From the IMG/VR virus record IMGVR_UViG_3300045988_040029, positions 1 through 43,910 of that record: a stretch of DNA of 43,910 nucleotides. The stretch is one strand, 5' to 3'. The notes under the pieces are model-generated. The model did no database searches and was not told where the DNA came from. It saw only the letters and a list, made by a program, of their open reading frames with translations. The translations under genes were made by a program, and so were the position numbers. Position 1 is the stretch's first letter. Every line of letters starts with the position of its first letter. The DNA is from a virus. This document shows, in pieces, positions 6,201 through 37,895 of the stretch.

Positions 6201-6201
6201 G

Positions 6202-8369: not shown

Positions 8370-8831
8370 TTACTTTGCCAAAATCTCAAAATGTGGTATC
8401 AGACCGCATGGTCCTCCGACGCTTGTAATTTTAAACACGTTATCAAATCTTTGATTCATGTATTGATAGAATCCGCCACGGTAATCTTTGTCATTCACCA
8501 TATCTTTATCCCACACACCTTCCCAGAAAAAGTCTGCCCCAGGTGTAAATGTAATAGTTTCTGGCAAAAGGTCATTTGTTTGTCCTCTCCACATGATCGG
8601 TGGAACATAAAGCAAAAGCTTTGAGTCCGCAGCTATCTTTGCGCCTTTTCCGGCTCTGTAATAGCTCACATGGAGTTCGGAATTATCGGAAGAATCTATG
8701 CCATATCTTCTGATGATCGCCCCTCTATCGGTGTTCAAATCGACATTGGATAGCACATGAGGATACCAGTACGCATCTCCTGTCGTGGCTGATTCGTAAT
8801 AATTAAAAATCGTCACCGTTTTTTCGTACAT
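8370..8831 (-). CDS. Head closure / head-tail joining protein (position-based)
   Basis: 153 aa with the SD AAGGAGAGGG. It lies between the accessory insertion and the tail completion gene. Confidence 0.45.
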   Translation of the reverse strand: MYEKTVTIFNYYESATTGDAYWYPHVLSNVDLNTDRGAIIRRYGIDSSDNSELHVSYYRAGKGAKIAADSKLLLYVPPIMWRGQTNDLLPETITFTPGADFFWEGVWDKDMVNDKDYRGGFYQYMNQRFDNVFKITSVGGPCGLIPHFEILAK

Positions 8832-8847
8832 GATACCCTCTCCTTAA

Positions 8848-9183
8848 TCATTTATTTTTCAGCTTATCCACGTCAACCTTGGACGTTCGTTTCCATAATT
8901 CCGTAATCTTTTCCCACCCGAACATCGAAATAAACGCCACAATAAATCCTGCCATGATAGCGGCTAAAATCATATACCACAAGATTGTCATGTGGATATA
9001 CTGCATATACGCCACAAAAGCGGCTACAGTAATTCCAATGGACAGTACAAGTACCAGTGCATCTGTCGGAATCTTAGACAAGAATCCAACGTTTTTAATC
9101 ACCTGTGTAATCACAGACACGCAAAACGCCAAAACACTGATTACTGCCAGAATCAGAGTTACATTTGTAAATAATGCTTCCAT
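8848..9183 (-). CDS. Holin (three TM helices, Hol118 / phi-LC3-like)
   Basis: 111 aa with three hydrophobic helices and a charged tail (WEKITELWKRTSKVDVDKLKNK). The motif VITQVIKNVGFLSKIPTDALVLVLSIG resembles Listeria A118 holin [25 protein letters not shown], which I am recalling from memory. Confidence 0.6.
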   Translation of the reverse strand: MEALFTNVTLILAVISVLAFCVSVITQVIKNVGFLSKIPTDALVLVLSIGITVAAFVAYMQYIHMTILWYMILAAIMAGFIVAFISMFGWEKITELWKRTSKVDVDKLKNK

Positions 9184-9189
9184 CTTCTT

Positions 9190-9504
9190 TTATCCCTCCG
9201 TATAGTCTTCAATAATGGTCTCGATGCCATATTCAATGGCACAGGTGTTCTCAATCTTGCACCCTCTGGCTTCGTCCCATCCTTTAGCGAAAAACGCCAC
9301 ATCAGCTTCTGCCAGAAGTTTAAGGGATTCGCCCAGATACCAGAGTGACTTTGCGTCAACTGGTGCTGACTGGAAGAAAGAATCAATTACTTCTACAGGT
9401 TCACCAACCTGTTTCTCTGCACTTTTGATTGCCTTTTCTCTTACTGCAAGAATTTCCTCATCTTTCTTGCCCATCATAGGCTGAGAAATAAATAACTTTT
9501 TCAT
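9190..9504 (-). CDS. DUF4406-like protein (nucleoside 2-deoxyribosyltransferase-like fold)
   Basis: The ATG at 9504 has the SD GGGAGGTGG. The sequence is MKKLFISQPMMGKKDEE...ADVAFFAKGWDEARGCKIENTCAIEYGI, and the family motif I recall is GWE.SRGa..E...A. Confidence 0.55.
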   Translation of the reverse strand: MKKLFISQPMMGKKDEEILAVREKAIKSAEKQVGEPVEVIDSFFQSAPVDAKSLWYLGESLKLLAEADVAFFAKGWDEARGCKIENTCAIEYGIETIIEDYTEG

Positions 9505-9506
9505 TA

Positions 9507-9704
9507 TTAAACCACCTCCCAATCATGTGATGCAATATTAGAAAACGTATACGCCACATTATTGGTCTCTCTGATATCCAGCACTTTACCGTCCTTACAA
9601 TGCATTTTGATCGTATTGTCTTCCCATGCCCAATATCCGCTCCAAGATGGGAGTTTAATTTTCTTTCCATTTAAAAGTTGAAACCATGCTTCTCTAAAAT
9701 TCAT
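9507..9704 (-). CDS. DUF2829-like small protein (Tad2-like anti-Thoeris candidate)
   Basis: 65 aa: MNFREAWFQLLNGKKIKLPSWSGYWAWEDNTIKMHCKDGKVLDIRETNNVAYTFSNIASHDWEVV. It carries the N-terminal M.F.EA..L..GKKI....W.G motif and the C-terminal DWEVV motif of DUF2829. Confidence 0.55.
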   Translation of the reverse strand: MNFREAWFQLLNGKKIKLPSWSGYWAWEDNTIKMHCKDGKVLDIRETNNVAYTFSNIASHDWEVV

Positions 9705-9709
9705 ACCTC

Positions 9710-10210
9710 TTACACCCCTGCATATAAAATTGGTATTCCATCATCTGTCCTTACTCCCATCAGAAGTGGTAACGCTGTCTTTAAGAGTAAGTTGTTCGTT
9801 TTCTGTACATCTCCGGCGGTGGCGTATACCGCACTCCATTCCTTTGCACTTGCCCCAATCTGCTGAGGCGTTGCGTAAGAGATGGATTCGCTGCCGGATG
9901 ATACTGACGTCACAATGCCTGTTGATTTGCCATTTGCCCCAACAGTAACCATCTCATTACTGTTCATGGCAGCATTTGTGGCGTTCCTTTCTGCAAGTTC
10001 CAAATCATACATTTTTTCTGCTACTGCGCACACAGCTTTTTTGAGCCCGTCCAAAGAATACTCATCCGTTGGTAATCCATTTCTTAGATTTCTATATGTT
10101 ATCGTGTCGATGAAATCACTGGCTCTCTGTGCCAGCCGGAGAAAGTCACCACCTGGCACGACATTGCCATAATACGAGGTTGTATAAAAATCATAGTCGG
10201 CATATGCCAT
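9710..10210 (-). CDS. Head-tail adaptor (gp6-like connector) candidate
   Basis: 166 aa, the first gene after the major capsid gene, with the SD GAGGTGA. The N terminus is MAYADYDFYTTSYYGNVVPGGDFLRLAQRASDFID. Confidence 0.55.
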   Translation of the reverse strand: MAYADYDFYTTSYYGNVVPGGDFLRLAQRASDFIDTITYRNLRNGLPTDEYSLDGLKKAVCAVAEKMYDLELAERNATNAAMNSNEMVTVGANGKSTGIVTSVSSGSESISYATPQQIGASAKEWSAVYATAGDVQKTNNLLLKTALPLLMGVRTDDGIPILYAGV

Positions 10211-10224
10211 ACCATATCACCTCG

Positions 10225-11397
10225 TTATCCTCTGGTTTTGATCCGTGCAATCGGAATAGCCTTGATTGGGAAGTATTTCTTTGTTCCAGAAGCATTATTG
10301 TTCGCAAGTTCCCAGTTTGAGCCAGTTTTGAGCTGCTCGTCCGTAGGAGAAATGATACCAGAATTTTTGAAAGAAATTCCATAAGGTGAGAAAATCTTTC
10401 TCTGTCTGGAATACAGTGTATCTTCTCCACCGTTCTTTTCAGGATCTCTGTCCATTTCGTAAGGTACTTTTGCACCGCAATTTGTGTACTCAATCGCACC
10501 TGCACCGAGGACGTAAGTTGTATAGATCATACCTGCTGGGAGCAGCTTCACATAGTCCCCTTCTGCCACATCTGGGATGTCTGTAATTACAGCTGTTTTT
10601 GCGACCTCGTATACACCGGTTCCGCCTGTAGTGACTTTTAATGCTCCCTGTTCGGTCTGGGTTGTTCTCACGTAGAGTGCTTTTGCCTCTTCTGCTGGCA
10701 TATCATCATCAACCAGAACAGTTCTTCCATTAAGCGTAGCAAGAGTCAAGTCTCTCTCAATTCCATTGGCATCCGTGTACTTCATGTACGCCAGCAGTTT
10801 CAGATTCTCCAGATCAGTTGCAATCTTAGAATGCATGATGGACAGGCTGAACTTCGCTTTATTGTCACCAAGAGCCTTCTGAATAGCGTTGTTTAAAGTG
10901 GTCTCTTTGAAACCACTTTCTGGATCTGAGGATACATCATATGTGTGGCCATTGACGAACTTCAGATTCTCTGCTCCTGTCATAGAAAAGATTCCGTCCA
11001 GAACCGCAAGAAGTGTAGCCTGATCGATGTCATCCCAATACTCAGCAACTTCCTGCGCTGCCGGCATGAAATCTTCTCCGGTAATGTCAGAGGAAAAATC
11101 TCTTTCTGTCCATCCATGAGCACGTCCCACTACAACTCTTCCGTGTGTAAATGTGTCTCTGGAATCCGTTGTAATATTGGTTGATCCATCGTAGTTGTCT
11201 GGTGTTCCACCGATTCTTGCTTTGATCGGAACCGTAATGTAATTACCACCAGTCTGATCAGGAAGCATGGCAGCATACTGAGATTTCTCTACAATAGCAC
11301 CAGATTTCAGCAGTTCATTTCTCTTGAGATTTGGGACAGTATCGACATACGCGCCAAAAACCTCTCCATTAAAATTTTTATTGTCAAATAATGGCAT
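10225..11397 (-). CDS. Major capsid protein
   Basis: 390 aa, directly after the scaffold gene, with the SD GGAAAGGA. Size and position fit an HK97-fold capsid protein. Confidence 0.8.
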   Translation of the reverse strand: MPLFDNKNFNGEVFGAYVDTVPNLKRNELLKSGAIVEKSQYAAMLPDQTGGNYITVPIKARIGGTPDNYDGSTNITTDSRDTFTHGRVVVGRAHGWTERDFSSDITGEDFMPAAQEVAEYWDDIDQATLLAVLDGIFSMTGAENLKFVNGHTYDVSSDPESGFKETTLNNAIQKALGDNKAKFSLSIMHSKIATDLENLKLLAYMKYTDANGIERDLTLATLNGRTVLVDDDMPAEEAKALYVRTTQTEQGALKVTTGGTGVYEVAKTAVITDIPDVAEGDYVKLLPAGMIYTTYVLGAGAIEYTNCGAKVPYEMDRDPEKNGGEDTLYSRQRKIFSPYGISFKNSGIISPTDEQLKTGSNWELANNNASGTKKYFPIKAIPIARIKTRG

Positions 11398-11479: not shown

Positions 11480-12127
11480 TTACATATACTGTTTGATATC
11501 CAGGTTCGGATTTTCGTTTTTCATCCTCATCAGCTCAGACATTGAATACTTCTGCCCTGCTGGTGGCTGTTTACCGCCTGTTGCGGTTGTAAAATGTGCC
11601 GCATTCTGCTGTGCCTGCCTCTGCTGTTGATCCACAAAAATACCTGGCTTCTGGTTTCCGTCCTTATCAGTAATCATCCCTTGGAAAATATCGCTGATAG
11701 ACTTTCCTTTTGCGGAATCATCATCAAGAGCCTTAACAAGAGCATCCCGGTAATGGTCCGATGTGATGTCATTCAGAAATTCGTACAGCTTATTGCCCTT
11801 TTCATCAGTAGATGAAAGAAACTCATTCACAGTCTTCTCTACTTCAATTTTTCTGGCATCTGCTGCTCTTGCCGCTTTTTCATCATTTAACTGAGTAGTG
11901 AGTGTGGAGATCTGCCCTTTCAGATCATCTACATCGACGTCCTTAAATCCGTCCAGTTTTGTCTGAACATCATCGAGAGAGGTTTTGTACTCATTCATCT
12001 TTTTAACTACTTTGTCGTACTCTCCAGCATTTTTGTAATGCTCTGAAAGTGATCTTTTAATCTCTTCTTTTTTATCTTCTGGGATCTCAATTCCAAAAGA
12101 CTTTAAGGTCTCAATTAATTTCTGCAT
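11480..12127 (-). CDS. Scaffolding protein (phage GP20-like)
   Basis: 215 aa, strongly helical and charged, with a Q-rich tail. It lies directly upstream of the capsid gene and has the SD AGGAGG. Confidence 0.75.
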   Translation of the reverse strand: MQKLIETLKSFGIEIPEDKKEEIKRSLSEHYKNAGEYDKVVKKMNEYKTSLDDVQTKLDGFKDVDVDDLKGQISTLTTQLNDEKAARAADARKIEVEKTVNEFLSSTDEKGNKLYEFLNDITSDHYRDALVKALDDDSAKGKSISDIFQGMITDKDGNQKPGIFVDQQQRQAQQNAAHFTTATGGKQPPAGQKYSMSELMRMKNENPNLDIKQYM

Positions 12128-12206
12128 ATTATTATCCTCCTGGCCGTGTTTATTGACCTGCCGCCGCAGGTAATGGATTAAGCCAGTTAGACCACTGGCA
12201 AGGTAA

Positions 12207-12278
12207 TTGCAGGAGACGGATTCGAACCGCCGTTTTCAAGGGTATGAACCTTGTGAGATTCCGCTTCTCTATCCTGCC
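12207..12278 (-). tRNA. tRNA with anticodon CAT (Met, or Ile2 if lysidine-modified)
   Basis: The minus strand reads GGCAGGA-TA-GAGA-AGCGGAA-TCTC-A-CAAGG-TTCATAC-CCTTG-AAAAC-GGCGG-TTCGAAT-CCGTC-TCCTGCA-A. This is a canonical cloverleaf with T8, A14, GG in the D loop, T33 and a TTCGAAT T loop. Position 1:72 is a G.A mismatch, and no CCA is encoded. Confidence 0.85.
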
Positions 12279-12578
12279 ATAAACCGGCTTTCACCGGTTT
12301 GCGAGATTTTGGTAAAAAACTATAAGGAAGTGTCCCGTCCTACCAACGGGATGGTGTACCCCGGAAATTGCATCCGCTTTTCAACCTCTGCGCCATAACA
12401 AAAAGTCAAGATATAAAAAGGAGCTGTAAAAATGATCAATAAGTAACAGGCACATTTCTATTAAGGAAGCACACCTAAGAAAGGAGGAAAAAGAAAATTA
12501 TGTCAAACCTTTTCAGGTTTACGAAGCATTTCTAATTCCAATTAAATTATAGCAGAGTGATGTTAATAGTCATCAGCA

Positions 12579-13001
12579 CTACTCAGACAGCATCTTGATT
12601 CGTCGCATAATCTCTTCTTTTTCGTCTCTGAAATCAGAATCTACCATCATAGATGAGAGCATATCGTATATCTCAACCATAAGGCGGCCCAGGGATTCCA
12701 TGAGTTTATCCTTGTGTTGCTGATCTCCGTTAGTCTGATAAGCCTGTTTAGCAGCTATATATGAATCGTACAATGCATCGATATTATGATCGTATCTGCC
12801 ATTGCTGTATTTCTTGATAACATCCTCTGTGACTTCTGCGACAGTCTCAGATGTTTTCCACTCACCACACATCTGTTTCAAATTGCAGATAGTTGTGGTC
12901 AGCTTAAAAACTACATCCAGATTGTTGTTTGTGAGCTGCTTTTTGATATTCTGTTCTTCAATTTTCAGCTGCTTTTCCAGAATTTTAATCATATCTTCCA
13001 T
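12579..13001 (-). CDS. Hypothetical all-helical protein (cassette gene K)
   Basis: 140 aa with the SD AGGTGGTGA. It is coupled 11 nt after the upstream gene. I recognised no family. Confidence 0.65.
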   Translation of the reverse strand: MEDMIKILEKQLKIEEQNIKKQLTNNNLDVVFKLTTTICNLKQMCGEWKTSETVAEVTEDVIKKYSNGRYDHNIDALYDSYIAAKQAYQTNGDQQHKDKLMESLGRLMVEIYDMLSSMMVDSDFRDEKEEIMRRIKMLSE

Positions 13002-13012
13002 ATCATCACCAC

Positions 13013-13603
13013 CTATCCGAATATCTCACACATTTTAGCCTTGTACTTATTGCGGATTTCCTGTTGAGATTCTGTGATATACACCATATCATATCCGGAA
13101 GAAATCAGATCAATAATGATCCGTTCGAGCTTCTTCAATTCATTGTCCACGTCTTCCACAAGTTTCTCCACAACAATAGCATCCGCAACCGCACCCATCT
13201 CACGAAGTCGTAATGAATAGTGCTCATATAGGTTCTTAGTATCCGATTCCCACTCACGATATTGATTAAATCCATCCTCAATACCTTTCTGTTTTGTGGA
13301 CTTGCCAACGCTGATCCTATTCGCGGACTGCCAGTTTTCCGGTATCATAGAAATCTGTCCAGAATAAGTGTCAGGTATCAGTTTGCTGTGATGATTGATG
13401 TAATATTGATTAAGTTTCTTCCTTTCCAGGGATTCCGCAAAATACTGATATTCATGAAGTTGTTTATATCCTTTCATGCCAAGGAAGTCAAAATAATCCG
13501 ACATCTGGTCATGAAACATAAGAGCCGCAATCATCCGAGCGTTAATCTCTGAAAAGATCGATTCTGCACTACTTACATCTCTATTGCTCTTGAAGGCAAT
13601 CAT
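13013..13603 (-). CDS. Ferritin-like four-helix-bundle candidate (cassette gene J)
   Basis: 196 aa with the SD GAGGGGGGTGA. AALMFHDQMSDYFDFLGMKGYKQLHEYQYFAESLERKKLNQYY and the later EKLVEDVDNELKKLERII resemble ferritin helices A/B and D, but with incomplete metal ligands. Confidence 0.4.
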   Translation of the reverse strand: MIAFKSNRDVSSAESIFSEINARMIAALMFHDQMSDYFDFLGMKGYKQLHEYQYFAESLERKKLNQYYINHHSKLIPDTYSGQISMIPENWQSANRISVGKSTKQKGIEDGFNQYREWESDTKNLYEHYSLRLREMGAVADAIVVEKLVEDVDNELKKLERIIIDLISSGYDMVYITESQQEIRNKYKAKMCEIFG

Positions 13604-13617
13604 TCAGATCACCCCCC

Positions 13618-14046
13618 TCATGCTACCTTTTTGATAATCAAGTTTGCATCCTTAACCAGAACCACACCAGCGGAAATGTTTCCGGCAGAGACAGTCAGAG
13701 ATGTCCCAGCAGGTACAGGAATAAGAGTGTCAGCACTCACGTTCTGATATACATCCGCTGTAACCACTGTGTAGTCCATCTCTGTTCCGCCAATAGCTTC
13801 TCCGTTCAGTTTAAGAACCAGAGCTGTTGCTCCTGCGGCTCCAGCTGTTACATTTGCATTGAACTGAAGTTCTACTGCCATAGGCTGATTCCCCCGGTTC
13901 GTAATTGTAAACAGTCCACTACCCTCAATATGATTGAGCCATCCGTTCTGGCATCCACATCTGCGAGATTTTACCCTTGTTCCAGTAAAGATAACATTCT
14001 GATTTACACTGATCTGCTGTGCATCTTTTGCGATTACATTTAACAT
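13618..14046 (-). CDS. TNF/C1q-like beta-sandwich candidate (BclA C-terminal-domain-like; cassette gene I)
   Basis: 142 aa with the SD AAAGGAGAA. The pattern VIFTGTRV...GSGLFTITNRGN...LVLKLNGEAIGGTEMDY...IPVPAGTSLTVSAGN...VKDANLIIKKV matches my recollection of BclA-C-type domains. Confidence 0.45.
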   Translation of the reverse strand: MLNVIAKDAQQISVNQNVIFTGTRVKSRRCGCQNGWLNHIEGSGLFTITNRGNQPMAVELQFNANVTAGAAGATALVLKLNGEAIGGTEMDYTVVTADVYQNVSADTLIPVPAGTSLTVSAGNISAGVVLVKDANLIIKKVA

Positions 14047-14061
14047 GATTATATTCTCCTT

Positions 14062-14097
14062 TTCAAAAATAAGGGGTAAGCTCCACGCCTACCCCCT
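14062..14097 (-). terminator. Intrinsic terminator after cassette gene H
   Basis: On the minus strand, GGGGTA..TACCCC (extendable with one bulge) is followed by TTATTTTTG, ending just before the SD of 13618..14046. Confidence 0.55.
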
Positions 14098-14110
14098 GTT
14101 ATTTGCAAGA

Positions 14111-14320
14111 CTACTTCGTAGCAATGGATTCTTCCAACATGCTAATTATTCGGTTTTGATTCTCGATGATCTTATCCAGGTATTTTCTGTCCTGTTCCTG
14201 TAGGTGCTTCGCTATGTCTGCGTTGCTCGCCTGCGACAAGTCACTTTCGTAATTCATCACCTGCAAGAATACGCCGAACATGTTTAGCATATCCAGGTAG
14301 GACAGTTCCCGGCTGATCAA
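14111..14320 (-). CDS. Hypothetical helical protein (cassette gene H)
   Basis: 69 aa, with a 4-nt overlap with the upstream gene. Confidence 0.65.
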   Translation of the reverse strand: MISRELSYLDMLNMFGVFLQVMNYESDLSQASNADIAKHLQEQDRKYLDKIIENQNRIISMLEESIATK

Positions 14321-15006
14321 AGTACGTTCCCACCGTTACCGCAGCAACCGCCGAACCCGGTCATGTTGTAAGCAAAGTAAGGGGAACAGGTGAGATAAGC
14401 CGGTGTCGGTGTCGGTCTTAACGCATTAACGATGTTTTTGGTCTGGTCGACCTGGGAGATCTGCCAATATGCTGTCTGGAGGTCTCTGTCACGGTCCGCA
14501 ATCTTGTCGCGAAGTCCCTGGATGGTGTTCTCCTGCATGAGCTGGCGTGTTGCCTGTCCGTCTGCAAGGACAGTTTCCTTGATGTCACAGCAGCACTGCG
14601 CAAGCTGTGCCTGCATGTTCTGTGCCTGTAATGCAGCATCGTATCTACTCTGTAAGATCTCTTTCTGTGTTTCACAGCAGCACTGCTGAGACTGAGCTCC
14701 TAACTGCTGCATTCCGAGCTGTGTTGCATATCTGTTCTCAAGTACATCTCTCTGTGTCTGGCAAGCAGTATTAGATACATTCTGGTTCGTGTTGAAAATG
14801 TCACGTTTGACAAATTCATCCGAAATGAAGTTGTCCTGCACTCCAGTCTCAACACCGCCGCGGTTCCATCCGCCCATCATCATAGGGAATAAAAATGCTA
14901 TGAAAATAATCCAAATCCAGCAATTTTCTCCCCACATATCGTTATTGTCATTTCTTGTGACTGCTGCTACATCTGCAGCGCTAAGTCCCATAGTTCCATC
15001 TGTCAT
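14317..15006 (-). CDS. Membrane-anchored protein with CCC-triplet repeats and a Gly/Cys tail (cassette gene G)
   Basis: 229 aa with the SD AGGAGA. It has one TM helix (CWIWIIFIAFLFPMMMGGW). Three repeats of about 29 aa are present: ACQTQRDVLENRYA, QQCCCETQKEILQSRYD and AQCCCDIKETVLADG. The C terminus is GFGGCCGNGGNVL. Confidence 0.75.
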   Translation of the reverse strand: MTDGTMGLSAADVAAVTRNDNNDMWGENCWIWIIFIAFLFPMMMGGWNRGGVETGVQDNFISDEFVKRDIFNTNQNVSNTACQTQRDVLENRYATQLGMQQLGAQSQQCCCETQKEILQSRYDAALQAQNMQAQLAQCCCDIKETVLADGQATRQLMQENTIQGLRDKIADRDRDLQTAYWQISQVDQTKNIVNALRPTPTPAYLTCSPYFAYNMTGFGGCCGNGGNVL

Positions 15007-15108
15007 GATAGTAGTCTCCTATTCATTATTTATTTATCAAGCCGTGTGCACACCGGCTGTGATACTATTATTATTAAGGTCAACAAAACCTTTTTGCCAA
15101 TGTTGACA

Positions 15109-15372
15109 TTATGGTTTAAAAATCCCAGTAAACTGTTCCGGATCAATTCCATTCTGCCTACATCCATTCTCAAAAATCTGCTGTGGGTTCTTCCCCTTAC
15201 ACATATCCATAGCTTGTTTAATGTTTGGATTGGTCTGCGCCATCTGATTCAACATTTCCTGTGGATTACCGGATTTTTTGATCTGATTTACAACCTGCAT
15301 TGCCTGCATCATTGCGGACATTGGGTTGTTACCCCCGCCCATTCTCCCAATCATGCTCATTAATGGATTCAT
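15109..15372 (-). CDS. Met/Asn/Gln-rich small protein with N/D-P-x-x repeats (cassette gene F)
   Basis: 87 aa, with an ATGA overlap with the upstream gene and the SD GGAGG. The repeats are NNPMSAMM, GNPQEMLNQM, TNPNIKQAM, KNPQQIF and IDPEQF. Confidence 0.65.
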   Translation of the reverse strand: MNPLMSMIGRMGGGNNPMSAMMQAMQVVNQIKKSGNPQEMLNQMAQTNPNIKQAMDMCKGKNPQQIFENGCRQNGIDPEQFTGIFKP

Positions 15373-15809
15373 TCTGATACCTCCTCATCTGGCAGTTCTC
15401 CTAAACGCTTCAATAAAGCATCAAATTCTTTTCGTGTAACGTAGTCAGTATTAACACTGTTATTTTGATTCTCAGCCATTCTATGAGCTTCTGGCTGTAT
15501 TTCCATAAACTGGAATGCCTTAAATGTTGCGCTTCCCATACCATCGACCGATTTTACGTAGAATATTGGATTATTATTATCCATCATCCAAATCGTGTGT
15601 CCCGGCTGTACAATCTGGTTCCTCGCTCCATCGATACCAGCCACCTGTATCCAGTTGACATTTGATGTGGGAGCTTGTGCCTGTTGAGGCTGTCCAGAGT
15701 ACATTCCCATCTGCTGATTTCTCTGTTGTTCAAGCTGATTGATTCGGTTCTGCAGCATTGCCTGTTCATTCGCAAACTGCTGTGGATCTATCATATTGTA
15801 AGGGTACAT
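15369..15809 (-). CDS. Gln-rich N terminus plus globular domain protein (cassette gene E)
   Basis: The ATG at 15809 has the SD AGGAGG 6 nt upstream (MYPYNMIDPQQF...); the track start at 15851 is less likely. 146 aa. Confidence 0.65.
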   Translation of the reverse strand: MYPYNMIDPQQFANEQAMLQNRINQLEQQRNQQMGMYSGQPQQAQAPTSNVNWIQVAGIDGARNQIVQPGHTIWMMDNNNPIFYVKSVDGMGSATFKAFQFMEIQPEAHRMAENQNNSVNTDYVTRKEFDALLKRLGELPDEEVSE

Positions 15810-15849
15810 AAGATACCTCCTATGCTTCTTTCTAGTTATATTTTTGCAC

Positions 15850-15885
15850 AAAAAAAGAACCTCAGACAGTTCATCTAAGGTTCTT
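15850..15885 (-). terminator. Intrinsic terminator inside the cassette (after gene D)
   Basis: The minus-strand RNA reads AAGAACCUUAGA-UGAACUG-UCUGAGGUUCUU followed by UUUUUGUGC. This is a 10-12 bp stem with one G.U pair. Confidence 0.7.
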
Positions 15886-15903
15886 AATAGTGTCAGAAAA
15901 GTA

Positions 15904-16035
15904 TCACTGCATCAGCAATTTAACTGCCGTTGCAATCCATCCGACTGCTGTCACTATGCAAGCCGTTCTCCACCGCTTGGTCTGTACTTTTGCTTCTTTG
16001 ATTACGTCAGAAGCGAGATTAAAGTTATTCATCAT
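15904..16035 (-). CDS. Small C-terminally anchored membrane protein (cassette gene D)
   Basis: About 43 aa from the ATG at 16035 (SD GGAGGT): MMNNFNLASDVIKEAKVQTKRWRTACIVTAVGWIATAVKLLMQ. Confidence 0.45.
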   Translation of the reverse strand: MMNNFNLASDVIKEAKVQTKRWRTACIVTAVGWIATAVKLLMQ

Positions 16036-16100
16036 TATACCTCCGTGATCTATGCTATATTCAGTATATAGCCTGTTCACAGAGAATAGCAAGCATCCTT

Positions 16101-16316
16101 TCAGCTTACTTTTAATATTTTCCGGTTCACTCTCCGGCTGATCCGCTTGGCAGTGGATATGCTCACATTCATCTTTTCAGCGCATTGTTCAAGAGGCACA
16201 CACTTCGCCCGTAGTTCGAATAATTCTCGTTCTGGTTCTGTAAAGTTGCAGACATCCCGGAAGTAGTCCAATTCCGGAACTGTAAAATCATAAACATTCA
16301 CAAGCCCGTACCTCAT
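16101..16316 (-). CDS. Sigma-70 region-4-like HTH regulator (cassette gene C)
   Basis: 71 aa. FTEPERELFELRAKCVPLEQCAEKMNVSISTAKRISRRVNRKI fits the region 4 pattern Lt.rEr.vf.L....s..eiAe.l.iS..tvk....rA..Ki. Confidence 0.5.
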   Translation of the reverse strand: MRYGLVNVYDFTVPELDYFRDVCNFTEPERELFELRAKCVPLEQCAEKMNVSISTAKRISRRVNRKILKVS

Positions 16317-16321
16317 CCATG

Positions 16322-16627
16322 CTAACGCTGATTCTGCGCTAAATACTGCGTAAGCTTCTCTCTCGTTTTTTTTAATTGATCCGTGTTGTTGCCACTGATC
16401 TGACTGTCCAACATGGTAGACAGCACTTCAAGAATCATAGAATCTCTTTCAGAGATCCTCTTCAGCGTCTCAAAATCCTGTCTGTCATGCTGTTCCAGCA
16501 CTTCTACCCTCTCATTGAGTTTGATGGCAGGGGATATCCACTTGTGAATTACCGCCACAGCTCCGCCAATAATTGAGATCCCTCCACAAATAGATAATAA
16601 AAGTTGTACAGCTTCTAATAGACTCAT
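16322..16627 (-). CDS. N-terminal TM plus coiled-coil protein (cassette gene B)
   Basis: 101 aa. LLLSICGGISIIGGAVAVI is followed by a charged helix. The architecture is BhlA-like or anti-sigma-like. Confidence 0.65.
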   Translation of the reverse strand: MSLLEAVQLLLSICGGISIIGGAVAVIHKWISPAIKLNERVEVLEQHDRQDFETLKRISERDSMILEVLSTMLDSQISGNNTDQLKKTREKLTQYLAQNQR

Positions 16628-16917
16628 AATTCGTATACCTGTTCTTCTACTTTTGGTGGTTTTATTTTTACTTCTACAAACAGAAAATCTTCACATATTC
16701 CTTTTTCTTTATATTCTTTTATCTCTTTTTTCATTAAATTGTCTAACACATCTCTGCCAAAGACAGATAAGCATCCAATTATTACTTTGTCGTTTACAAC
16801 CATTCTTCTGAATACAATTCCAAACCCTTCTATCGGGCCGATGTCAAAAATCTCCAATCTCACATGTGATATTTTTTTATCATCCAGAAGATTTTTTACA
16901 AGTTTTTTTATTGTCAC
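16624..16917 (-). CDS. Hypothetical protein (cassette gene A)
   Basis: The GTG at 16917 forms a GTGA overlap with the MuF stop and follows AAGGTGG. The track start at 16929 is also GTG. About 97 aa. Confidence 0.6.
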   Translation of the reverse strand: MTIKKLVKNLLDDKKISHVRLEIFDIGPIEGFGIVFRRMVVNDKVIIGCLSVFGRDVLDNLMKKEIKEYKEKGICEDFLFVEVKIKPPKVEEQVYEL

Positions 16918-18182
16918 GTTCTTTTCCACCTTTCTTTATGCCGTTTAGCACCAGATTTACTTCGCCGTTCCTGATCGTATCCGTAGCCAGCCACCTTGTT
17001 TCTTTCATACTGTGGAGCCATGTTGTTCCGTTCGCAAAAATCATTGTAAGCTTTGTTTTGACGCGTCAGTTTGTACGATAATGTATCGTATTTATCCTGT
17101 ATGCCTGCTTTTTCTGGCGTCTCATCTGATAACATGTTTAGTTCCGTTTGCATCGCCAGCAGCCTGCGTTTGGTTGCCCGGATCGACCGTTCCATCTTTC
17201 GCTGTTCCTGCATCAGATCATATTTCTTCCGGTTCTCTTCTGTGCTGATCTTCAGATTGCCTTTTTCATCCAGATATGGATTCCTCAGATCCTTATCCCA
17301 CATCTGGTGGCTGTGTCGACAGTTGTATCCATGCAAGCCAAGAGGATTTACTACTCTCCCTTGTCCGGTAACTGGATCAATATCGTAGCCGGTTAATTCC
17401 AACAGATTTGGATATCCCGGTTCTGATCCACGGATCCTATATACTTTGCCTTGCCAGTTCTCGTGTCCTGCGCAGTACGGTTGTCCTTCTTTCTGCGGTC
17501 TGGCTCCTGTGTGAGCAGATATTAATACATATTCGCTTTTTGTCTCCGCAATATACTGATTTGTCACCTGCGCAGCCGTCTGATTCATGGATGTGACCAC
17601 GCAGCACCTCACTGCTGCTTCCAAAGTCCGCTTTGTACCGGTTGGGTATGTAACCATTACCCCACGTCCAGCGTACCGATCCAGAACATCCGCAGTTGCC
17701 TGAGTATAGCTTTCCACTCCTGCTGCCACTCTCATCTCTGATTCATCCATCAGATTGATAAGATCCTTTTGTGCCTGGTCCATTGTGGTTCTGGTAAGGT
17801 TGGATAGTTCGCTAAGTGTCTTCCGGTACTCAGCATCCATAATCTGGATCACAAGCGGATTTTCCAGTGGTGGTGATACTACAAGTCCCATCTGCTTCAA
17901 TGTCTCTTCATCACTCGCCCACGATGCCAGAATAGCGTTCTGTAATATCTTCCTGAGTTCAGCCCGGCTCATATCCATATACTCAGCCAACTTCTGTTCT
18001 ATGTATTCCCTGCTGTCTCCCATCTGCTGTAGCCGGTATAATAGCCGATCTGCCGTAGCTGTAAGTTCCCCAGCGTTTACCAGGCGCCGGGTGATGTCGT
18101 GCAGTATATCATCTTCCAACTTCCGAAAGATCTCTATCAGACGATCTTCTTTCCCCAAAAAATAATCCGGTTCCAGCATCAT
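16914..18182 (-). CDS. Minor head protein, MuF / SPP1 gp7 family
   Basis: 422 aa. It has the motif LGLHGYNCRHSH (the H.NCR. core of the MuF domain), a basic C-terminal tail, and an ATGA overlap with the upstream gene. Confidence 0.8.
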   Translation of the reverse strand: MMLEPDYFLGKEDRLIEIFRKLEDDILHDITRRLVNAGELTATADRLLYRLQQMGDSREYIEQKLAEYMDMSRAELRKILQNAILASWASDEETLKQMGLVVSPPLENPLVIQIMDAEYRKTLSELSNLTRTTMDQAQKDLINLMDESEMRVAAGVESYTQATADVLDRYAGRGVMVTYPTGTKRTLEAAVRCCVVTSMNQTAAQVTNQYIAETKSEYVLISAHTGARPQKEGQPYCAGHENWQGKVYRIRGSEPGYPNLLELTGYDIDPVTGQGRVVNPLGLHGYNCRHSHQMWDKDLRNPYLDEKGNLKISTEENRKKYDLMQEQRKMERSIRATKRRLLAMQTELNMLSDETPEKAGIQDKYDTLSYKLTRQNKAYNDFCERNNMAPQYERNKVAGYGYDQERRSKSGAKRHKERWKRT

Positions 18183-18604
18183 TCCACCAACTTTCTTTTT
18201 ACCAGTTCTTCCCAGTCGTGTAAATGTTCCACTTTTGCCATCTCAAACCACTTCGCACCAGTTCCAGGCTCATGATATTGTAACTTTCGCCCGGTCGGGT
18301 ATTTTGCTGGTGGTGACCACCATCCTGTTATATTGCCCTCTGCATCCTTAATTGGGATATTCGGGCCGTATACCTCGCCCATGTACTGATAATGTGCATA
18401 TGGTGCATACCATTCAACAGTTCCACCAGTCATGCCGTCTGGATATCTCACTTGTGACCTCAGTGCTCCCTGCCGAAATGGGATGTATGGTATGCTATCC
18501 GCTACAATCTGCTGATTCAGCGCTATCTGTGCTTTATCCAGATTGCCTGCTATACGATCCAGATTTAGTTCTATGTGTACATTCCCAATTGCTTCTTTTT
18601 TCAT
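18179..18604 (-). CDS. Minor capsid / HK97 gp10-like small structural protein
   Basis: 141 aa. ADSIPYIPFRQGALRSQV resembles the yvP.dTG.Lr.S motif. It is coupled to the MuF gene. Confidence 0.45.
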   Translation of the reverse strand: MKKEAIGNVHIELNLDRIAGNLDKAQIALNQQIVADSIPYIPFRQGALRSQVRYPDGMTGGTVEWYAPYAHYQYMGEVYGPNIPIKDAEGNITGWWSPPAKYPTGRKLQYHEPGTGAKWFEMAKVEHLHDWEELVKRKLVE

Positions 18605-18665: not shown

Positions 18666-19664
18666 TTATATAATACATTTCAAATGGCTGTTCCTGATCG
18701 AAGCTTGATCACTTGTGATATACTGCATTGTCGTATCTAATGATTCATGGCCGAGTAACTTACTAACATCGACAATATTCATTCCGTGTTTTAGCGACAC
18801 GCTTGCAGTAGTATGACGGAATACATGTGGAGTAACGTGTGTTCTTACATCTGATGTTCTCTGCACAATATCTCTTATAAGCTTCTCAATTCCTGCCTTC
18901 CGCAATCTTCCGTACGGCCTTTTCTTGTACACAAATAATGCTGGGTTGATGTCTGTTCGTTCTGCCAGATATTCTTTCAAAGCAAATTCTGCTTTTGCAT
19001 TCAGGTAGCTTATCCTGTGCTTACTGCCTTTTTCGAACAGAATCACTTCTTTTATATCAAAATTCACATCTGTAATATTGAGATGCTCCAGTTCACTTAC
19101 ACGACATCCTGTAGAGTACAGCATTTCAACAATTGCTTTTTCTCTCTTTGTTTTGCATACAGACCGGATCTGCTCTAACTCAAGCTGAGACATTGGTTTC
19201 TTATGTTTCCGTTCGTACTTAATTGGTTTGATATTGACTGCTGGATTCTTAGGTATGTACTCTTCAGCGGCTAGCCATGAGAAATAAGTGCAGATCACTG
19301 TTCTTTTACCATCCAATGTTCTGTTCGATACTCCATGATTCTTCTGGTAAGTGTACAGATACCCTCTTATATCAATCGCACTTACTTCATATGGTTGTTT
19401 CTTTATTGTCATGAAAAAATCTTTCAGTACAATATCGTACAGATACAATGTCTTATCAGATAATCCTGCAATCTTTTTCGATACAATGTAGATCTGCACG
19501 CTCTCTGGCACATGATATTCATATTCTACAACATCTGTTTTTCTGTTCTCAATCTCATAGTCTGACAATATGACATCCAATTTCATTCCTATGATTTTCA
19601 GTGTGTCGCCGTCTGCATAATCATTCAACATCACAAGCAATTCATTTCTCAGCTGTTCTCTCAT
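18666..19664 (-). CDS. Tyrosine recombinase, XerC/XerD-like (second recombinase of this phage)
   Basis: The ATG at 19664 has the SD AAGGAGG 8 nt upstream; the track start at 19802 is unlikely. Catalytic signatures are STGCRVSEL (Arg), HVFRHT (H-x-x-R) and LGHESLDTTMQY (His...Tyr). It has an N-terminal SAM-like core-binding domain. Confidence 0.85.
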   Translation of the reverse strand: MREQLRNELLVMLNDYADGDTLKIIGMKLDVILSDYEIENRKTDVVEYEYHVPESVQIYIVSKKIAGLSDKTLYLYDIVLKDFFMTIKKQPYEVSAIDIRGYLYTYQKNHGVSNRTLDGKRTVICTYFSWLAAEEYIPKNPAVNIKPIKYERKHKKPMSQLELEQIRSVCKTKREKAIVEMLYSTGCRVSELEHLNITDVNFDIKEVILFEKGSKHRISYLNAKAEFALKEYLAERTDINPALFVYKKRPYGRLRKAGIEKLIRDIVQRTSDVRTHVTPHVFRHTTASVSLKHGMNIVDVSKLLGHESLDTTMQYITSDQASIRNSHLKCII

Positions 19665-19737
19665 AAAAATACCCTCCTTTTTGGGTTCACAAAAGGAAGG
19701 TATCGTGTTATACTTATACCGTACCCTTTGTGGTGCT

Positions 19738-19791
19738 GGAGCTGGACTTTTTGTTTGGTAGACGGGAGTCCAGCTCCCTTTTTGTTTTCTT
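19738..19791 (+). terminator. 11-bp stem hairpin plus T tract, oriented as a plus-strand terminator
   Basis: GGAGCTGGACT-18 nt-AGTCCAGCTCC is followed by CTTTTTGTTTTCTTTTTT on the plus strand. No T tract follows on the minus strand. Confidence 0.5.
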
Positions 19792-19804
19792 TTTTGATAC
19801 ACAA

Positions 19805-19813
19805 ATTATAGCA
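19805..19813 (-). promoter_or_regulatory. Extended -10 element TGCTATAAT (copy 1 of the 11-bp direct repeat AATTATAGCAC)
   Basis: The minus strand reads GTGCTATAATT, about 140 nt upstream of the recombinase ATG. No good -35 is present. Confidence 0.4.
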
Positions 19814-19855
19814 CGAACTGCACCAAAAAGGTACTTTTATTCAATTTTTTGGTTA

Positions 19856-19864
19856 ATTATAGCA
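19856..19864 (-). promoter_or_regulatory. Extended -10 element TGCTATAAT (copy 2)
   Basis: An identical 11-mer lies 51 bp upstream of copy 1, just after the stop of the fibre gene. Confidence 0.4.
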
Positions 19865-19876
19865 CCCTTTAGATTA

Positions 19877-21712
19877 TCAAAGTGTTTCCATCCATTTTTC
19901 AATCTTATTTGTGATGATTATATATCCTGCTTCATTTGGATGTAATCCTCCACCATATGCATCAGATACTTCTTGAATAAAATAGTTCAGATTTGATTCA
20001 TTGTATAAATCACAATAAGGTACCGACCATTTTTTACAAATCTGTTTAGCAATATCCATATATTCGTTGAATTTGAACTGTCCCATTGCAGAAGGTACTT
20101 TAAATGTAACAATATAACCAATTTTCTTACCAATCCAGTGAGTCTGTGCATATTTGAAAATTGATTCCAAAGCACCAGCAAAAGTGTTTTCATTCAGTTC
20201 ATCATTGTATCCAGTTGAAATAGTTCCAATAGGACAATCTGTAATATTATAAGCATCATTTACACCGCCTTCAATAATGATGTAATCAGCTTCGGGGTGC
20301 TCAGAAAACATTTTAGTCATTCTTTCGAGAATACTATCTGTTCTACCACTTCTTTTCGATATAGTAGTTCCACCAATACCATAACCATAAGTAATAGATT
20401 TCGGATAATTTTCTTGAATAATCTTTCTCCAACCAGTATTGCTATAATCTTCTACTGTTGGTCTCCAATTTGCACCATAGCAAATACTGTCACCTGTAAA
20501 CAATATTACTTTATTGTCAAATATTGCGACTGGATTAATATTTTTTGCAATGTTTTCAATTTCTCTAACTAACTTCTCGGAATATTTTACTGTATAATCA
20601 TAAGGAATATATGTACTAGGATATTCAACATCTTTCACAACCATAGCAGTAGAGAAGTCCTTACTCTGATCAAATATCGTAAATCTAACATATTTTGCAT
20701 TGCTATATGTTGTAGAAGAAAATGTTGCATATCCATTCTCTTTGGAAATAAATGATGATAAATCAGCTATAACTATTGACTTGTTTTTATCCCACAAAGT
20801 TACACTAAAATTAAACCAATCTGTCGGAAAAGTAAATCTATAAACAGAATCACTTTCATATGGTATAAACCCACTTGTTAAAGCATTATCGTTTGCCGTA
20901 TACGATCCATTTGTTGAATTATAGAAACCATGTTGAACATCGCTATCATCAATATCTAATAAGTTTACATTTTTTGTTTTTGAAAATACATGCTCAGCTA
21001 AATCTTCCTTTAGCTGACCAATGTCAGCCTGGATCTGTTCTGTATGTGTGTCATATTCCTGTATCTTCTGATCTGCGTTTTGGTTATATGCGGTCTGCTT
21101 TGCTTCTGCATTTTGGTCAAAAGCAGTTTGTGCCTCAGCCACATGAGTGTCAAATGCTGACTGCCTTTGTTTGGCATTATCATCAAATGCCTTTTGTTTT
21201 GCGGTCGCATTTTGATTGTATTCTGATTTTGCCAAAGTGCCCGTATCTTCAATCTGTTTTTCCCACCTAGTCCCTTTTTCATTGATGGATCTGATCGCGC
21301 TGTCAAGAGTGCTCGCAAGTGATGCCATTGCATTTGTCTCAGCATCACTAATATTGCTCAGTGCTCCACTTTCAGCAGAGTTAATATTGGATACAGCTTC
21401 TGTTTCCTCTGCTTTTACTGCTTCTGTAGCTGCTTTTTGTGCATTTTCGATGCCTATCAAAGACTTTTCCACAAGATCACGAATTTGTGTCATCGACAAT
21501 TTGATTTCTTCTTTCCCAGAATTAATCTCTTCTTTGCTGGAAAGTATATCTTGTTTTGCTGCTTCAATAGTTTCGGTAAATTGCTTATATTCGTCTGAAT
21601 GGTCATATCTCAGCGATTCTAACCACGATTCCAATGTGCCCTCATATCCCTTACTTACTGCAAGCTCATATGCCGACATTCCAACCACACGTCCAAGGTC
21701 TAATACTTGCAT
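19877..21712 (-). CDS. Fibre-like structural protein with a C-terminal SGNH/GDSL esterase domain
   Basis: The ATG is at 21712 (MQVLDLGRVVGMSAYELAVSKGYEGTLESWLESL, an N-terminal motif common in Firmicutes phage fibres). A long coiled coil carries Q.AFD.NA.AKQ repeats. SGNH blocks are FTGDSICYG, GIGGTT, GGVNDAY and GGLHPNEAGY. Confidence 0.75.
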   Translation of the reverse strand: MQVLDLGRVVGMSAYELAVSKGYEGTLESWLESLRYDHSDEYKQFTETIEAAKQDILSSKEEINSGKEEIKLSMTQIRDLVEKSLIGIENAQKAATEAVKAEETEAVSNINSAESGALSNISDAETNAMASLASTLDSAIRSINEKGTRWEKQIEDTGTLAKSEYNQNATAKQKAFDDNAKQRQSAFDTHVAEAQTAFDQNAEAKQTAYNQNADQKIQEYDTHTEQIQADIGQLKEDLAEHVFSKTKNVNLLDIDDSDVQHGFYNSTNGSYTANDNALTSGFIPYESDSVYRFTFPTDWFNFSVTLWDKNKSIVIADLSSFISKENGYATFSSTTYSNAKYVRFTIFDQSKDFSTAMVVKDVEYPSTYIPYDYTVKYSEKLVREIENIAKNINPVAIFDNKVILFTGDSICYGANWRPTVEDYSNTGWRKIIQENYPKSITYGYGIGGTTISKRSGRTDSILERMTKMFSEHPEADYIIIEGGVNDAYNITDCPIGTISTGYNDELNENTFAGALESIFKYAQTHWIGKKIGYIVTFKVPSAMGQFKFNEYMDIAKQICKKWSVPYCDLYNESNLNYFIQEVSDAYGGGLHPNEAGYIIITNKIEKWMETL

Positions 21713-21722
21713 TCTATCACCT

Positions 21723-37767: not shown

Positions 37768-37895
37768 TTTGTTTTCCCCCTTTTCTTATTATCAATAATA
37801 TAATTAATGAACGACCAAAAAATGTGAAAATTTCATAATAATACTTTAAATTTGTTGTCAAAAATGATATTTTTAATGTGAAAGGGGGAAAATAC

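Follow-up and report, generated by a model that had tools for sequence, protein, structure and literature searches.

The DNA analysed here is a viral sequence of 43,910 nucleotides (nt), IMG/VR record IMGVR_UViG_3300045988_040029, and this whole stretch is referred to below as the window. Between its gene for a MuF-type minor capsid protein and its gene for the scaffolding protein, eleven small open reading frames (ORFs), p1 to p11, all on the minus strand, fill positions 12579-16929, a block of about 4.3 kb. This cassette is read here as a mobile, transcriptionally insulated, late accessory module that acts at the membrane or at the level of the cell, and the probability of this reading is put at about 0.5. 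The accessory character of the block is much more certain than its site of action, and it is probably not a part of the head-assembly machinery.

Gene order and distribution of the cassette

The arrangement given in the original prediction, namely eleven co-oriented small ORFs together with a transfer RNA (tRNA) between the MuF and scaffold genes, is present in full (Table 1). It was further claimed that the genes are translationally coupled and have good Shine-Dalgarno (SD) sites. Overlaps are indeed found at four junctions, by 16 nt where p1 begins within the end of the MuF gene and by 4 nt each at p1/p2, p5/p6 and p7/p8, and good SD sites stand upstream of p5, p6, p7, p9, p10 and the scaffold gene; the remaining cassette genes are separated by gaps of 5-102 nt. 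In the case of p5, translation most likely starts at ATG 15809 and not at the TTG (15851) of the listed ORF: the TTG falls within the terminator T1, and the ATG is preceded by an AGGAGG SD site. The relatives of p5 number 823, and those listed have lengths of 144-149 amino acids (aa), mostly 146-148.

The distribution of the cassette was followed in two sets of loci. Twenty-five were fetched through p9, mostly from genomes and metagenome-assembled genomes of Lachnospiraceae and Clostridia, and iterative hidden Markov model (HMM) searches of them show a conserved core in the order p5-(p6)-p7-(p8)-p9-p11. Ahead of the core there is often a membrane protein of the p4 type and a helix-turn-helix (HTH) protein of the p3 type. 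The second set comprises 80 IMG/VR loci, the MuF proteins of which are 57-63% identical to that of the window, and 53 of them span both the MuF and the scaffold gene. It was observed that 48 of these 53 hold X-(p2)-p3-p5-p7-p9-p11 in a gap of 3.7-6.3 kb, X being a protein of about 126 aa that heads the cassette in most relatives and is absent from the window. In two loci (L072 and L085) the gap measures 1.1-1.3 kb and holds p2 alone, and the core is therefore dispensable for this head type; the other three have different content. By these comparisons the cassette is the rule in this head-gene lineage, yet dispensable. Thus, the description of the cassette as an orphan does not hold, since its core recurs at the same position and has thousands of relatives; the exceptions are p1 and p10, which have few homologues.

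The same block is also found at other genome positions. Five diverse long contigs bearing p7 (L032-L036) were inspected, and all five show lysozyme and/or holin genes, small genes, X, p5, p6, a gap of 100-165 nt, p7, p9 and p11, with a holin as the sole recognisable lysis gene in L035 and a Sigma70_r4-like gene among the small genes of L036. In L033, L035 and L036, the block is directly followed by a divergent integrase; L032 has a large serine recombinase about 6 kb beyond it, and HTH and HNH genes are present past it in L034, with no integrase in the stretch read. In the cultured Butyrivibrio phage Ceridwen, for which only lytic growth has been seen, the block comes after the lysis genes and no integrase is annotated in the stretch. 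Here, p2- and p4-like genes lie on either side of the lysin gene, the p4-like one right after it, and are followed by X, p5, a p6-like gene, p7 and p9, with p11 two genes past p9; the p6-like gene (66 aa) was recognised by position and composition, with no HMM match. In Dulem virus 39, the core adjoins the integrase and replication genes.

The core is thus present or absent among relatives (48 of 53 loci against L072 and L085) and occupies other positions in L032-L036, Ceridwen and Dulem virus 39, which is the pattern of a moron. A comparison of synteny across related phages had been proposed, and it suggests that the block is gained, lost and relocated as a unit. When the region was searched by megablast against cultured and deposited phages, a match was obtained over about 200 nt only, at the beginning of the scaffold gene and in the spacer next to it.

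An element flanked by repeats or mobilised by a tyrosine recombinase was considered and rejected: convincing repeats, direct or inverted, are absent from the two sides of the cassette, and relatives of the recombinase of the window are distant and were found in two loci only. In those two loci (L044 and L046), the distantly related recombinases lie between MuF and X. The cassette itself accepts further insertions, because in a Lachnospiraceae prophage (L018) it is split between p7 and p9 by a 371-aa ORF (8798-9913). By eye, this ORF has the look of a cytosine-5 DNA methyltransferase, and an int-alpA RNA motif (8795-8859) precedes it.

Transcription signals and spacer RNAs

The cassette appears to be set off by its own predicted transcription signals, two internal terminators and a downstream promoter-like site. 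The two intrinsic terminators expected on the gene strand were found (T1 and T2 in Table 1), and they are the two strongest of nine terminator sites, where shuffled sequences give 5.5 +/- 2.4 sites. A hairpin with a T-run lies between p7/p8 and p9 in 66 of 81 related loci. The stem sequences differ among these loci, and it follows that the terminator ahead of p9 is maintained and not merely inherited as sequence. The promoter-like site, read from 12573 to 12546, has 10 of 12 matches with an extended -10 element and is a pattern match only. In silico, therefore, the block has the signals of its own that a moron carries: two terminators, a promoter-like site and a terminator recurring in 66 of the 81 loci.

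The spacer of 451 nt between p11 and the scaffold gene holds, in order, the promoter-like site, a RAGATH-21-like structured RNA and a tRNA. In the window, the RAGATH-21-like RNA scores just under the Rfam cut-off (Table 1); at the same position in L049, L001, L003, L005 and L006, RAGATH-21 is above it, with 74-94 bits. A tRNA follows in four of these five relatives and none is reported for L003, while L005 also has a skipping-rope RNA in the spacer. These spacer RNAs may mark where the scaffold-capsid message is processed or begins. Its start or its processing would, as we infer, not depend on the cassette, and this would explain how strong terminators are tolerated upstream of the most highly expressed genes.

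Selection and mosaic boundaries

The ratio of nonsynonymous to synonymous substitution rates (dN/dS) was determined against L026, a relative with 90% identity, and lies at 0.009-0.18 for every cassette gene tested (p2, 0.009; p5, 0.07; p6, 0.04; p8, 0.14; p11, 0.01). Such values identify them as real working genes. The flanking genes give values in the same range, 0.07 for MuF and 0.05 for the scaffold, and the cassette genes tested are under strong purifying selection, as constrained as the capsid genes.

Further, the boundaries of the cassette are mosaic. In L005, p7 and p9 are 87% and 89% identical to those of the window, against 34% for MuF and 63% for the scaffold. In L001 the corresponding values are 85% (p7), 80% (p9) and 41% (scaffold), with 34% for MuF over the part of the gene that is on the contig. 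Thus, p7 and p9 evolve more slowly than the MuF and scaffold genes on either side, and the mosaic boundaries mark the cassette as an evolutionary module of its own.

Database comparisons

Scans with Pfam, PHROGs, NCBIfam and PADLOC covered p1 to p10, and p11 was compared with Pfam alone. In agreement with the original prediction, no cassette protein was placed in a head-assembly family by Pfam, PHROGs or NCBIfam. The only named matches in Pfam and NCBIfam were sub-threshold ones, to BclA_C for p9 and to sigma region 4 for p3. In PHROGs, p5, p7, p9 and p10 fall only in families of unknown function. A Pfam scan of cassette proteins from distant relatives added no further named family, and sequence-profile searches of the PDB with p5, p7, p9, p11 and X gave nothing significant.

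The p7 family

The core protein p7 consists, in order, of a short N-terminus, a hydrophobic Trp-rich segment set in Gly-rich stretches, two long helices, a P-x-P-x-PAY motif and a Cys/Gly tail. It has two CCC motifs, CCC being invariant in the family alignments, as well as further conserved cysteines. A low-confidence AlphaFold2 (AF2) model built from 84 diverse sequences places helices at residues 30-43, 66-102 and 113-196; its predicted local distance difference test score (pLDDT) is 52, and for this reason it was left out of the fold search.

The family is very large: clustering at 90% identity gives at least 7,871 clusters, and at 50% there are 3,518 representatives; the best 150 representatives listed are stand-alone proteins of 201-361 aa. 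Members occur in Lachnospiraceae-type siphophages, in crAss-like phages, in Bacteroides phage C3_41T2LP and in two Methanomassiliicoccales viruses. The crAss-like homologues are annotated as 'outer capsid protein/viral fiber' or 'spike protein'. The protein matches phrog_16490 (E 2e-10), has no match in Pfam and receives no functional name from any source examined. Its PDB profile matches are all sub-threshold; 13 of 19 are to influenza HA2 (E 0.1-0.9), and these are probably compositional. A literature search on phrog_16490, on BclA-like prophage genes and on the crAss 'ubiquitin-like' and 'outer capsid' annotations found no functional study.

Within the p7 gene there is a 26-nt direct repeat (14585-14610 and 14672-14697, 81% identity, 87 nt apart). 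It is an internal duplication that matches the two CCC-containing helical units. In the crAss phage cr4_1 (L028), the p7 homologue and its neighbour (4713-5690 and 6146-6712) have in-frame TAG codons, which is consistent with stop-codon reassignment.

The p9 jelly roll

The TNF/BclA-C-like candidate named in the original prediction is supported by structure modelling. The AF2 model of p9, a monomer computed from a shallow alignment, is an all-beta jelly roll (pLDDT 84.7; predicted template modelling (TM) score, pTM, 0.80), so that the predicted structure is a TNF-like beta-sandwich. In Foldseek, its best match is the C-domain of F-BclA (9h38; E 1.6e-7, TM 0.72/0.75), followed by BclA (3tyj), and further matches are to ExsFA, BxpB, phage fibre and spike knobs, TNF ligands and C1q. 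In the PDB sequence-profile search, the match of p9 to Tako8 was set aside, Tako8 being a designed repeat protein. Against PF18573 (BclA_C), p9 scores 25.8 bits (E 1e-5), which is below the gathering cut-off of 38, and 3 of 21 diverse members of its family match this model at E <= 0.01, the best at 5e-7. It also matches phrog_20016 (E 2e-19). The best matches in BFVD are stand-alone proteins of 130-145 aa, mostly from uncultured phages and of several tail types.

The predicted p9 fold is thus that of the BclA and F-BclA C-domains and of ExsFA/BxpB from the exosporium of the Bacillus cereus group (E 1.6e-7 to 1.6e-5, TM 0.63-0.75), and ExsFA/BxpB are likewise stand-alone domains of about 140-170 aa. 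In contrast to BclA, p9 (identity 14-22%) has no collagen-like GXX repeats and no N-terminal exosporium-targeting region, its jelly roll beginning at residue 2. It also differs from the whole group in being encoded by phages, including phages of non-sporulating hosts. The viral proteins of the same fold class are the knobs of the short tail fibre of cyanophage A-1(L) and of the central spike of phi812, and the C1q-domain proteins of uncultured Caudoviricetes. There, however, the knob is the C-terminus of a long fibre polypeptide, whereas p9 is a separate protein of 142 aa beside the coiled-coil p7. C1q/TNF-like domains are usually extracellular binding modules, such as fibre knobs. No obvious signal peptide was seen in the soluble cassette proteins, p9 included, by eye and with no predictor.

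Other cassette proteins

The HTH protein p3 had been described as sigma-70 region-4-like, and the description stands in part. It matches phrog_1190 'RNA polymerase sigma factor' at E 3e-7 and TIGR02937 at E 1.4e-4 (positions 118-163 of 165), while its Pfam matches lie below the cut-offs (PF08281, 19.5 bits against 25.7, E 7.8e-4; PF04545, 17.6 bits against 24.1, E 2.8e-3). All of these matches are confined to the C-terminal part of the sigma models and region 2 is absent. From these alignments, p3 would be a region-4-type HTH protein and not a sigma factor. The type is conserved upstream of the core in many loci, and p3 is likely a regulator of the cassette.

As was also noted before, the HTH gene is flanked by genes for membrane proteins, p2 and p4 each having a hydrophobic segment (Kyte-Doolittle maximum over 19 residues, 2.38 for p2; maximum 1.76 for p4). 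The C-terminal region of p2 looks helical by eye, and its homologues are present in L001, L004 and L005, in the majority of the 80 IMG/VR loci and next to the lysin gene of Ceridwen. The family of p4 extends to L003, L008, L016-L021 and L023. The Gln-rich and Cys-rich proteins mentioned in the same account were likewise seen. Thus, the N-terminus of p5 is rich in Gln, Asn, Pro and Tyr, a block of about 55 aa in its middle is conserved, and the motif YVTRxE lies at the C-terminus; the protein matches phrog_21718 (E 2e-19). The composition of p6 is 13.8% Met, 12.6% Gln and 12.6% Asn, and it follows p5 in L001, L002, L004, L005, L007, L009, L011 and L014. Homologues of p8, with 51-74% identity, are found in L001, L002, L005, L006 and L010.

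The proposal that p10 is ferritin-like is weakened by a closer look. The protein has no Pfam match; in PDB profile searches it matches five ferritins weakly (E 0.03-0.22) and over residues 12-75 only. The iron ligands of ferritin, which we take to be Glu17, Glu50 and His53 (ferritin numbering), are not conserved as a set: the p10 family consensus has Arg and Glu opposite the presumed Glu17 and His53, and the equivalent of Glu50 is kept. There is thus a faint suggestion from sequence that p10 is possibly ferritin-like, without the canonical ferroxidase ligands. It is restricted to the window and its closest relatives (L001, L004, L005, L006 and L026), and no homology between p10 and p11 was found. 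The idea of an encapsulin cargo loses its footing here, as most relatives that share the capsid module are without p10, the ligands are not conserved in it and its C-terminus (KYKAKMCEIFG) shows no obvious targeting motif by eye.

In the last gene product, p11, an N-terminal and a C-terminal block are conserved, and both look helical. Most relatives have a low-complexity linker rich in Tyr, Ser, Arg and Gly between the two blocks, and in the window this linker is short; p11 directly follows p9 in most loci. The first, p1, has no match in Pfam, PHROGs or NCBIfam and a homologue only in the close relative L026. It is thus lineage-specific, and it occupies the place that X has in relatives. The motifs of X are DC(A/V)VRA, PDTCPDCYTV (with a CPxC) and H..DG..YDSWDS. 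It has no Pfam or PDB match; glutaredoxin came up at E 1.7 only, and the CPxC weakly resembles an active site. X may be a thiol oxidoreductase or a papain-like enzyme that acts on Cys-rich or Gly-rich partners.

A membrane-acting module and its alternatives

In the scheme proposed for the cassette, p3 would regulate the unit. The p7 protein would oligomerise via its long helices, its Trp/Gly-flanked hydrophobic segment may engage a membrane, and the invariant CCC motifs and other cysteines would cross-link the assembly or bind metal. A C1q/TNF-like trimer of p9 would dock on this assembly, with p5, p6 and p11 as putative low-complexity partners or chaperones. A single complex of p7, p9 and partners is suggested by their fixed adjacency, shared cysteine richness and co-conservation, and the lack of obvious signal peptides in the soluble parts suggests that it forms late and on the cytoplasmic side. 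The membrane is implicated by the hydrophobic segments of p2, p4 and p7 and by the neighbourhood of lysis genes in Ceridwen and many other phages. Monoderm bacteria, diderm bacteria and archaea all have viruses with p7, so the target must be one that is common to all these hosts, either the cytoplasmic membrane or the particle, and the accessory function would be independent of the type of host envelope. At the cytoplasmic membrane, the likeliest roles would be the exclusion of other phages, the timing of lysis or egress, or an assembly site.

Several points weigh against this reading. No known homologue fixes the function of the cassette, and the oligomerisation of p7, its insertion into a membrane and its contact with p9 are all inferred. 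An ordinary membrane anchor would usually have Lys or Arg close by, and the hydrophobic segment of p7 has neither. In the crAss phage cr4_1, no homology to p9 or p11 was detected in the neighbours of p7, which leaves p7 as the only truly universal part. The C1q/TNF fold and the many cysteines fit a role on the virion surface at least as well. Occurrence in two different moron slots says 'accessory' and does not say what the function is, and the terminators T1 and T2 are predictions.

The strongest alternative places the complex on the virion. The p7 coiled coil would then be a trimeric shaft bearing p9 as a knob, with p5 and p11 as adaptors, in the form of head fibres or a cross-linked decoration. 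In a variant, p7 would be a packaged ejection protein that inserts into membranes and is kept soluble by the Met-rich p6. Such a complex would help the phage to adhere in the gut, make the particle more stable or assist the delivery of DNA, and every source examined is gut or rumen, whatever the type of host. The predicted fold of p9 matches the tips formed by BclA and F-BclA and the knobs of the A-1(L) short fibre and the phi812 central spike, and for soluble proteins with no signal peptide apparent by eye the virion is a natural route to the outside. In the phages of strict anaerobes, p7 and p9 have many conserved cysteines, and the uncharged surroundings of the p7 hydrophobic segment are more those of a fusion or insertion peptide than of a Sec anchor. 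The location between the MuF and scaffold genes in 48 of 53 loci also fits; the MuF protein of phage SPP1, gp7, is itself a packaged head protein. Against a place on the virion, the core is missing in L072 and L085 despite the same head genes, and elsewhere the block comes after lysis genes or beside integrase and replication genes, positions that are atypical for structural genes. With a terminator directly ahead of its gene, p9 would be expressed less, no match to a known decoration or ejection family was found in Pfam or PHROGs, and the Ceridwen paper reports no virion proteome. Decoration or ejection proteins, which the original prediction had listed as an alternative, are thus possible. 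Taken as a whole, the virion-borne complex is a tentative proposal, although a role on the virion is nearly as likely as control at the cytoplasmic membrane.

A broader form of the membrane-acting reading would make p7 and its partners an ancient, so far unrecognised machine that the tailed viruses of the gut have in common, whether their hosts are Gram-positive bacteria, Gram-negative bacteria or archaea, and in which a Cys-cross-linked or metal-binding coiled-coil assembly carries a C1q-like trimer. It could be a device for egress, exclusion or DNA delivery, or a membrane platform for particle assembly. The platform would fit the finding that the procapsid precursors of SPP1 form at the membrane (PMC13212656). 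In this broad form the proposal is unlikely.

Less likely still is a defence, anti-defence or lysogenic-conversion moron, which would be expressed from signals of its own and either shield the lysogen or act against the immunity of the host. Of this proposal, made earlier as an alternative, the moron part stands in that the block behaves as one unit in its gain, loss and relocation. It lies in classical moron slots, after lysis genes and before an integrase, as well as in the moron slot of SPP1; it has an HTH regulator and terminators of its own; and it is patchy among relatives. The defence part fares worse. PADLOC gave nothing significant for p1 to p10, two matches on p8 at E 0.0025 being read as chance, and no enzymatic or nucleic-acid-sensing domain is recognisable. 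Moreover, the cassette is co-oriented with the late genes and embedded in them, it is present in Ceridwen, known only from lytic growth, and p7 occurs in crAss-like phages. At least seven genes in a fixed order, with the look of low-complexity and coiled-coil structural proteins, are also unlike known defence systems.

The idea that the cassette mimics spore-coat or exosporium proteins and alters host sporulation or spore surfaces, suggested by the closeness of the p9 fold to BclA, F-BclA, ExsFA and BxpB, by Cys-, Tyr- and Gln-rich compositions that recall coat proteins and by the many Clostridia or Lachnospiraceae among the hosts, is very improbable, given that a homologous cassette is present in a phage of Butyrivibrio fibrisolvens, which to our knowledge does not form spores, that p7 extends to viruses of Bacteroides and methanogenic archaea and to crAss-like phages, that neither NCBIfam nor Pfam gave a spore family match, that p9 is without the collagen-like stalk and targeting region of BclA, that signal peptides are not obvious and that the ferritin-like p10 is lineage-specific.

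Relation to known systems

The closest precedent for the position of the cassette is found in phage SPP1. There, a segment with oriR and three moron genes, gp8-10, interrupts the conserved order of virion genes; it is 'bracketed between transcriptional signals', and its products are unrelated to known proteins, their necessity being unknown (PMC6316719). From the numbering of the genes, this segment would lie between gene 7 (MuF-like) and gene 11 (scaffold), apparently the same slot of an SPP1-type head module as the one occupied by the cassette. The cassette is therefore placed in a known kind of arrangement, and the contiguity of the MuF and scaffold genes stated for SPP1-like phages has to be given up. 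There are differences as well: the cassette has eleven genes in place of three and no known replication origin, and its core keeps a fixed order across thousands of phages, also at other genome positions. SPP1 is not among the phage records matched by p5, p7 and p9.

Two other systems offer analogies for p7. The T4 class III holin T acts with the partners RI and RIII. Like holin T, p7 combines a short N-terminus with a single hydrophobic segment, and its large C-terminal domain contains cysteines that are functionally conserved; genes for small soluble partners are found near it, and the block adjoins lysis genes in several phages. Unlike holin T, p7 shows no sequence or Pfam similarity to it, the partners are without signal sequences, p7 is also present in archaeal viruses, and the phages that bear the cassette already have recognised holins. 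With spanins and class I viral fusion proteins, p7 would share a Gly-rich hydrophobic peptide followed by long helical regions. Its hosts, however, include monoderm bacteria and archaea, where there is no outer membrane for a spanin to fuse.

What is new here is the module as a whole, with the families of p7, p5, p6, p11 and X, which are undescribed in Pfam, NCBIfam, PHROG names and full-text literature searches; a moron block in the apparent gene 7/gene 11 slot, the fold of p9 and the HTH of p3 were already known. The fixed gene order, the regulator of its own and the conserved internal terminators point to one coherent, undescribed function. Working it out would annotate thousands of 'hypothetical' genes of the gut virome and could reveal a host-independent step of phages at the membrane or on the particle. 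The MuF/scaffold junction is a regular cargo slot in this lineage and apparently in SPP1 too, so a gene at this junction should not simply be taken to encode a head protein. The question is open to experiment, since the cultured phage Ceridwen, which grows on B. fibrisolvens DSM 3071, carries the module.

Table 1. Cassette genes, flanking genes, predicted signals and other features, with positions in the window; X is given with its positions in four relatives
Feature	Position	Strand	Remarks
p1	16624-16929	-	101 aa; GTG start
p2	16322-16627	-	101 aa; N-terminal hydrophobic segment
p3	16101-16316	-	71 aa; sigma-70 region-4-type HTH
p4	15904-16092	-	62 aa; C-terminal hydrophobic segment; small membrane protein
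p5	15369-15809	-	146 aa from ATG 15809; listed ORF 15369-15851
p6	15109-15372	-	87 aa; Met/Asn/Gln/Gly-rich
p7	14317-15006	-	229 aa; core protein
p8	14111-14320	-	69 aa; TTG start
p9	13618-14046	-	142 aa; predicted C1q/TNF/BclA-C-like jelly roll
p10	13013-13603	-	196 aa; possible ferritin-like helical protein
p11	12579-13001	-	140 aa
Terminator T1 (predicted, intrinsic)	15855-15885	-	14-bp stem, loop of 3, T-run; between p4 and p5
Terminator T2 (predicted, intrinsic)	14071-14097	-	11-bp stem with 6 GC, T-run; between p8 and p9
Promoter-like site	12546-12573	-	ATGACT, 16 nt, TG-TATAAT; just past the p11 stop
RAGATH-21-like structured RNA	12353-12475	-	RF03097, 67.4 bits (cut-off 70.3), E 1e-11, full model
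tRNA-Met (CAT)	12206-12279	-	ARAGORN; Rfam tRNA 53.3 bits
MuF-type minor capsid protein	16914-18182	-	Upstream flank; PF06152 Phage_min_cap2, E 3.6e-72
Scaffolding protein	11480-12127	-	Downstream flank; PF06810 Phage_scaffold, E 8.7e-11
Gp13-like capsid protein	10225-11397	-	Followed by connector and tail genes
Minor_capsid_2	18179-18604	-	PF11114; directly upstream of MuF
Tyrosine recombinase (extra)	18666-19802	-	378 aa
Portal (presumed)	22388-23830	-	61% identity to the annotated portal of Dulem virus 35
Terminase, small/large fusion	24125-25747	-	540 aa
CI-like repressor	37878-38696		Away from the cassette
Lysogeny integrase	38731-39822		Away from the cassette
Endolysin	40090-41670		Away from the connector genes
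X in L018	5130-5486
X in L033	6671-7057
X in L034	6885-7283
X in L027	5713-6090

The surrounding genes

The window is a closed circular phage assembly, as its first 53 nt are identical to its last 53 nt, and nearly all of its genes are on the minus strand. A tail-protein ORF of 1,298 codons spans the two ends, running from 2713 down to 1 and from 43857 down to 42674 on the minus strand. It is because this ORF crosses the circular junction that no long ORF is listed in 1-2689.

The terminase ORF has a Terminase_2 (small subunit) domain at residues 3-123 together with Terminase_3 and its nuclease domain, and thus appears to be a fusion of the two subunits. The order of portal, Minor_capsid_2 and MuF is shared by nearly all of the 80 related IMG/VR loci and also by L004 and L016-L021. 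In L003 and L005, Minor_capsid_2 is placed differently from the window, among the connector genes after the capsid gene. It was also considered whether MuF could be a polymorphic toxin with the cassette genes as immunity genes. This was rejected, as Phage_min_cap2 spans residues 3-384 of the 422 of MuF and there is no toxin domain.

A second variable slot (18666-22391, minus strand) lies between the presumed portal and Minor_capsid_2/MuF. It contains a 222-aa ORF, a 619-aa protein with a GDSL/SGNH hydrolase domain at its C-terminus, and the tyrosine recombinase. In the close relative L026, an 873-aa protein is found in this slot and the recombinase is absent.

Among the head-tail connector genes, a 111-aa ORF (8848-9183, minus strand) has by eye the look of a multi-pass membrane protein. 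In the window it has no Pfam match. By position, its apparent counterpart in L026 is a Phage_holin_5_2 protein, and the counterpart in Dulem virus 35 is annotated as 'holin protein'.

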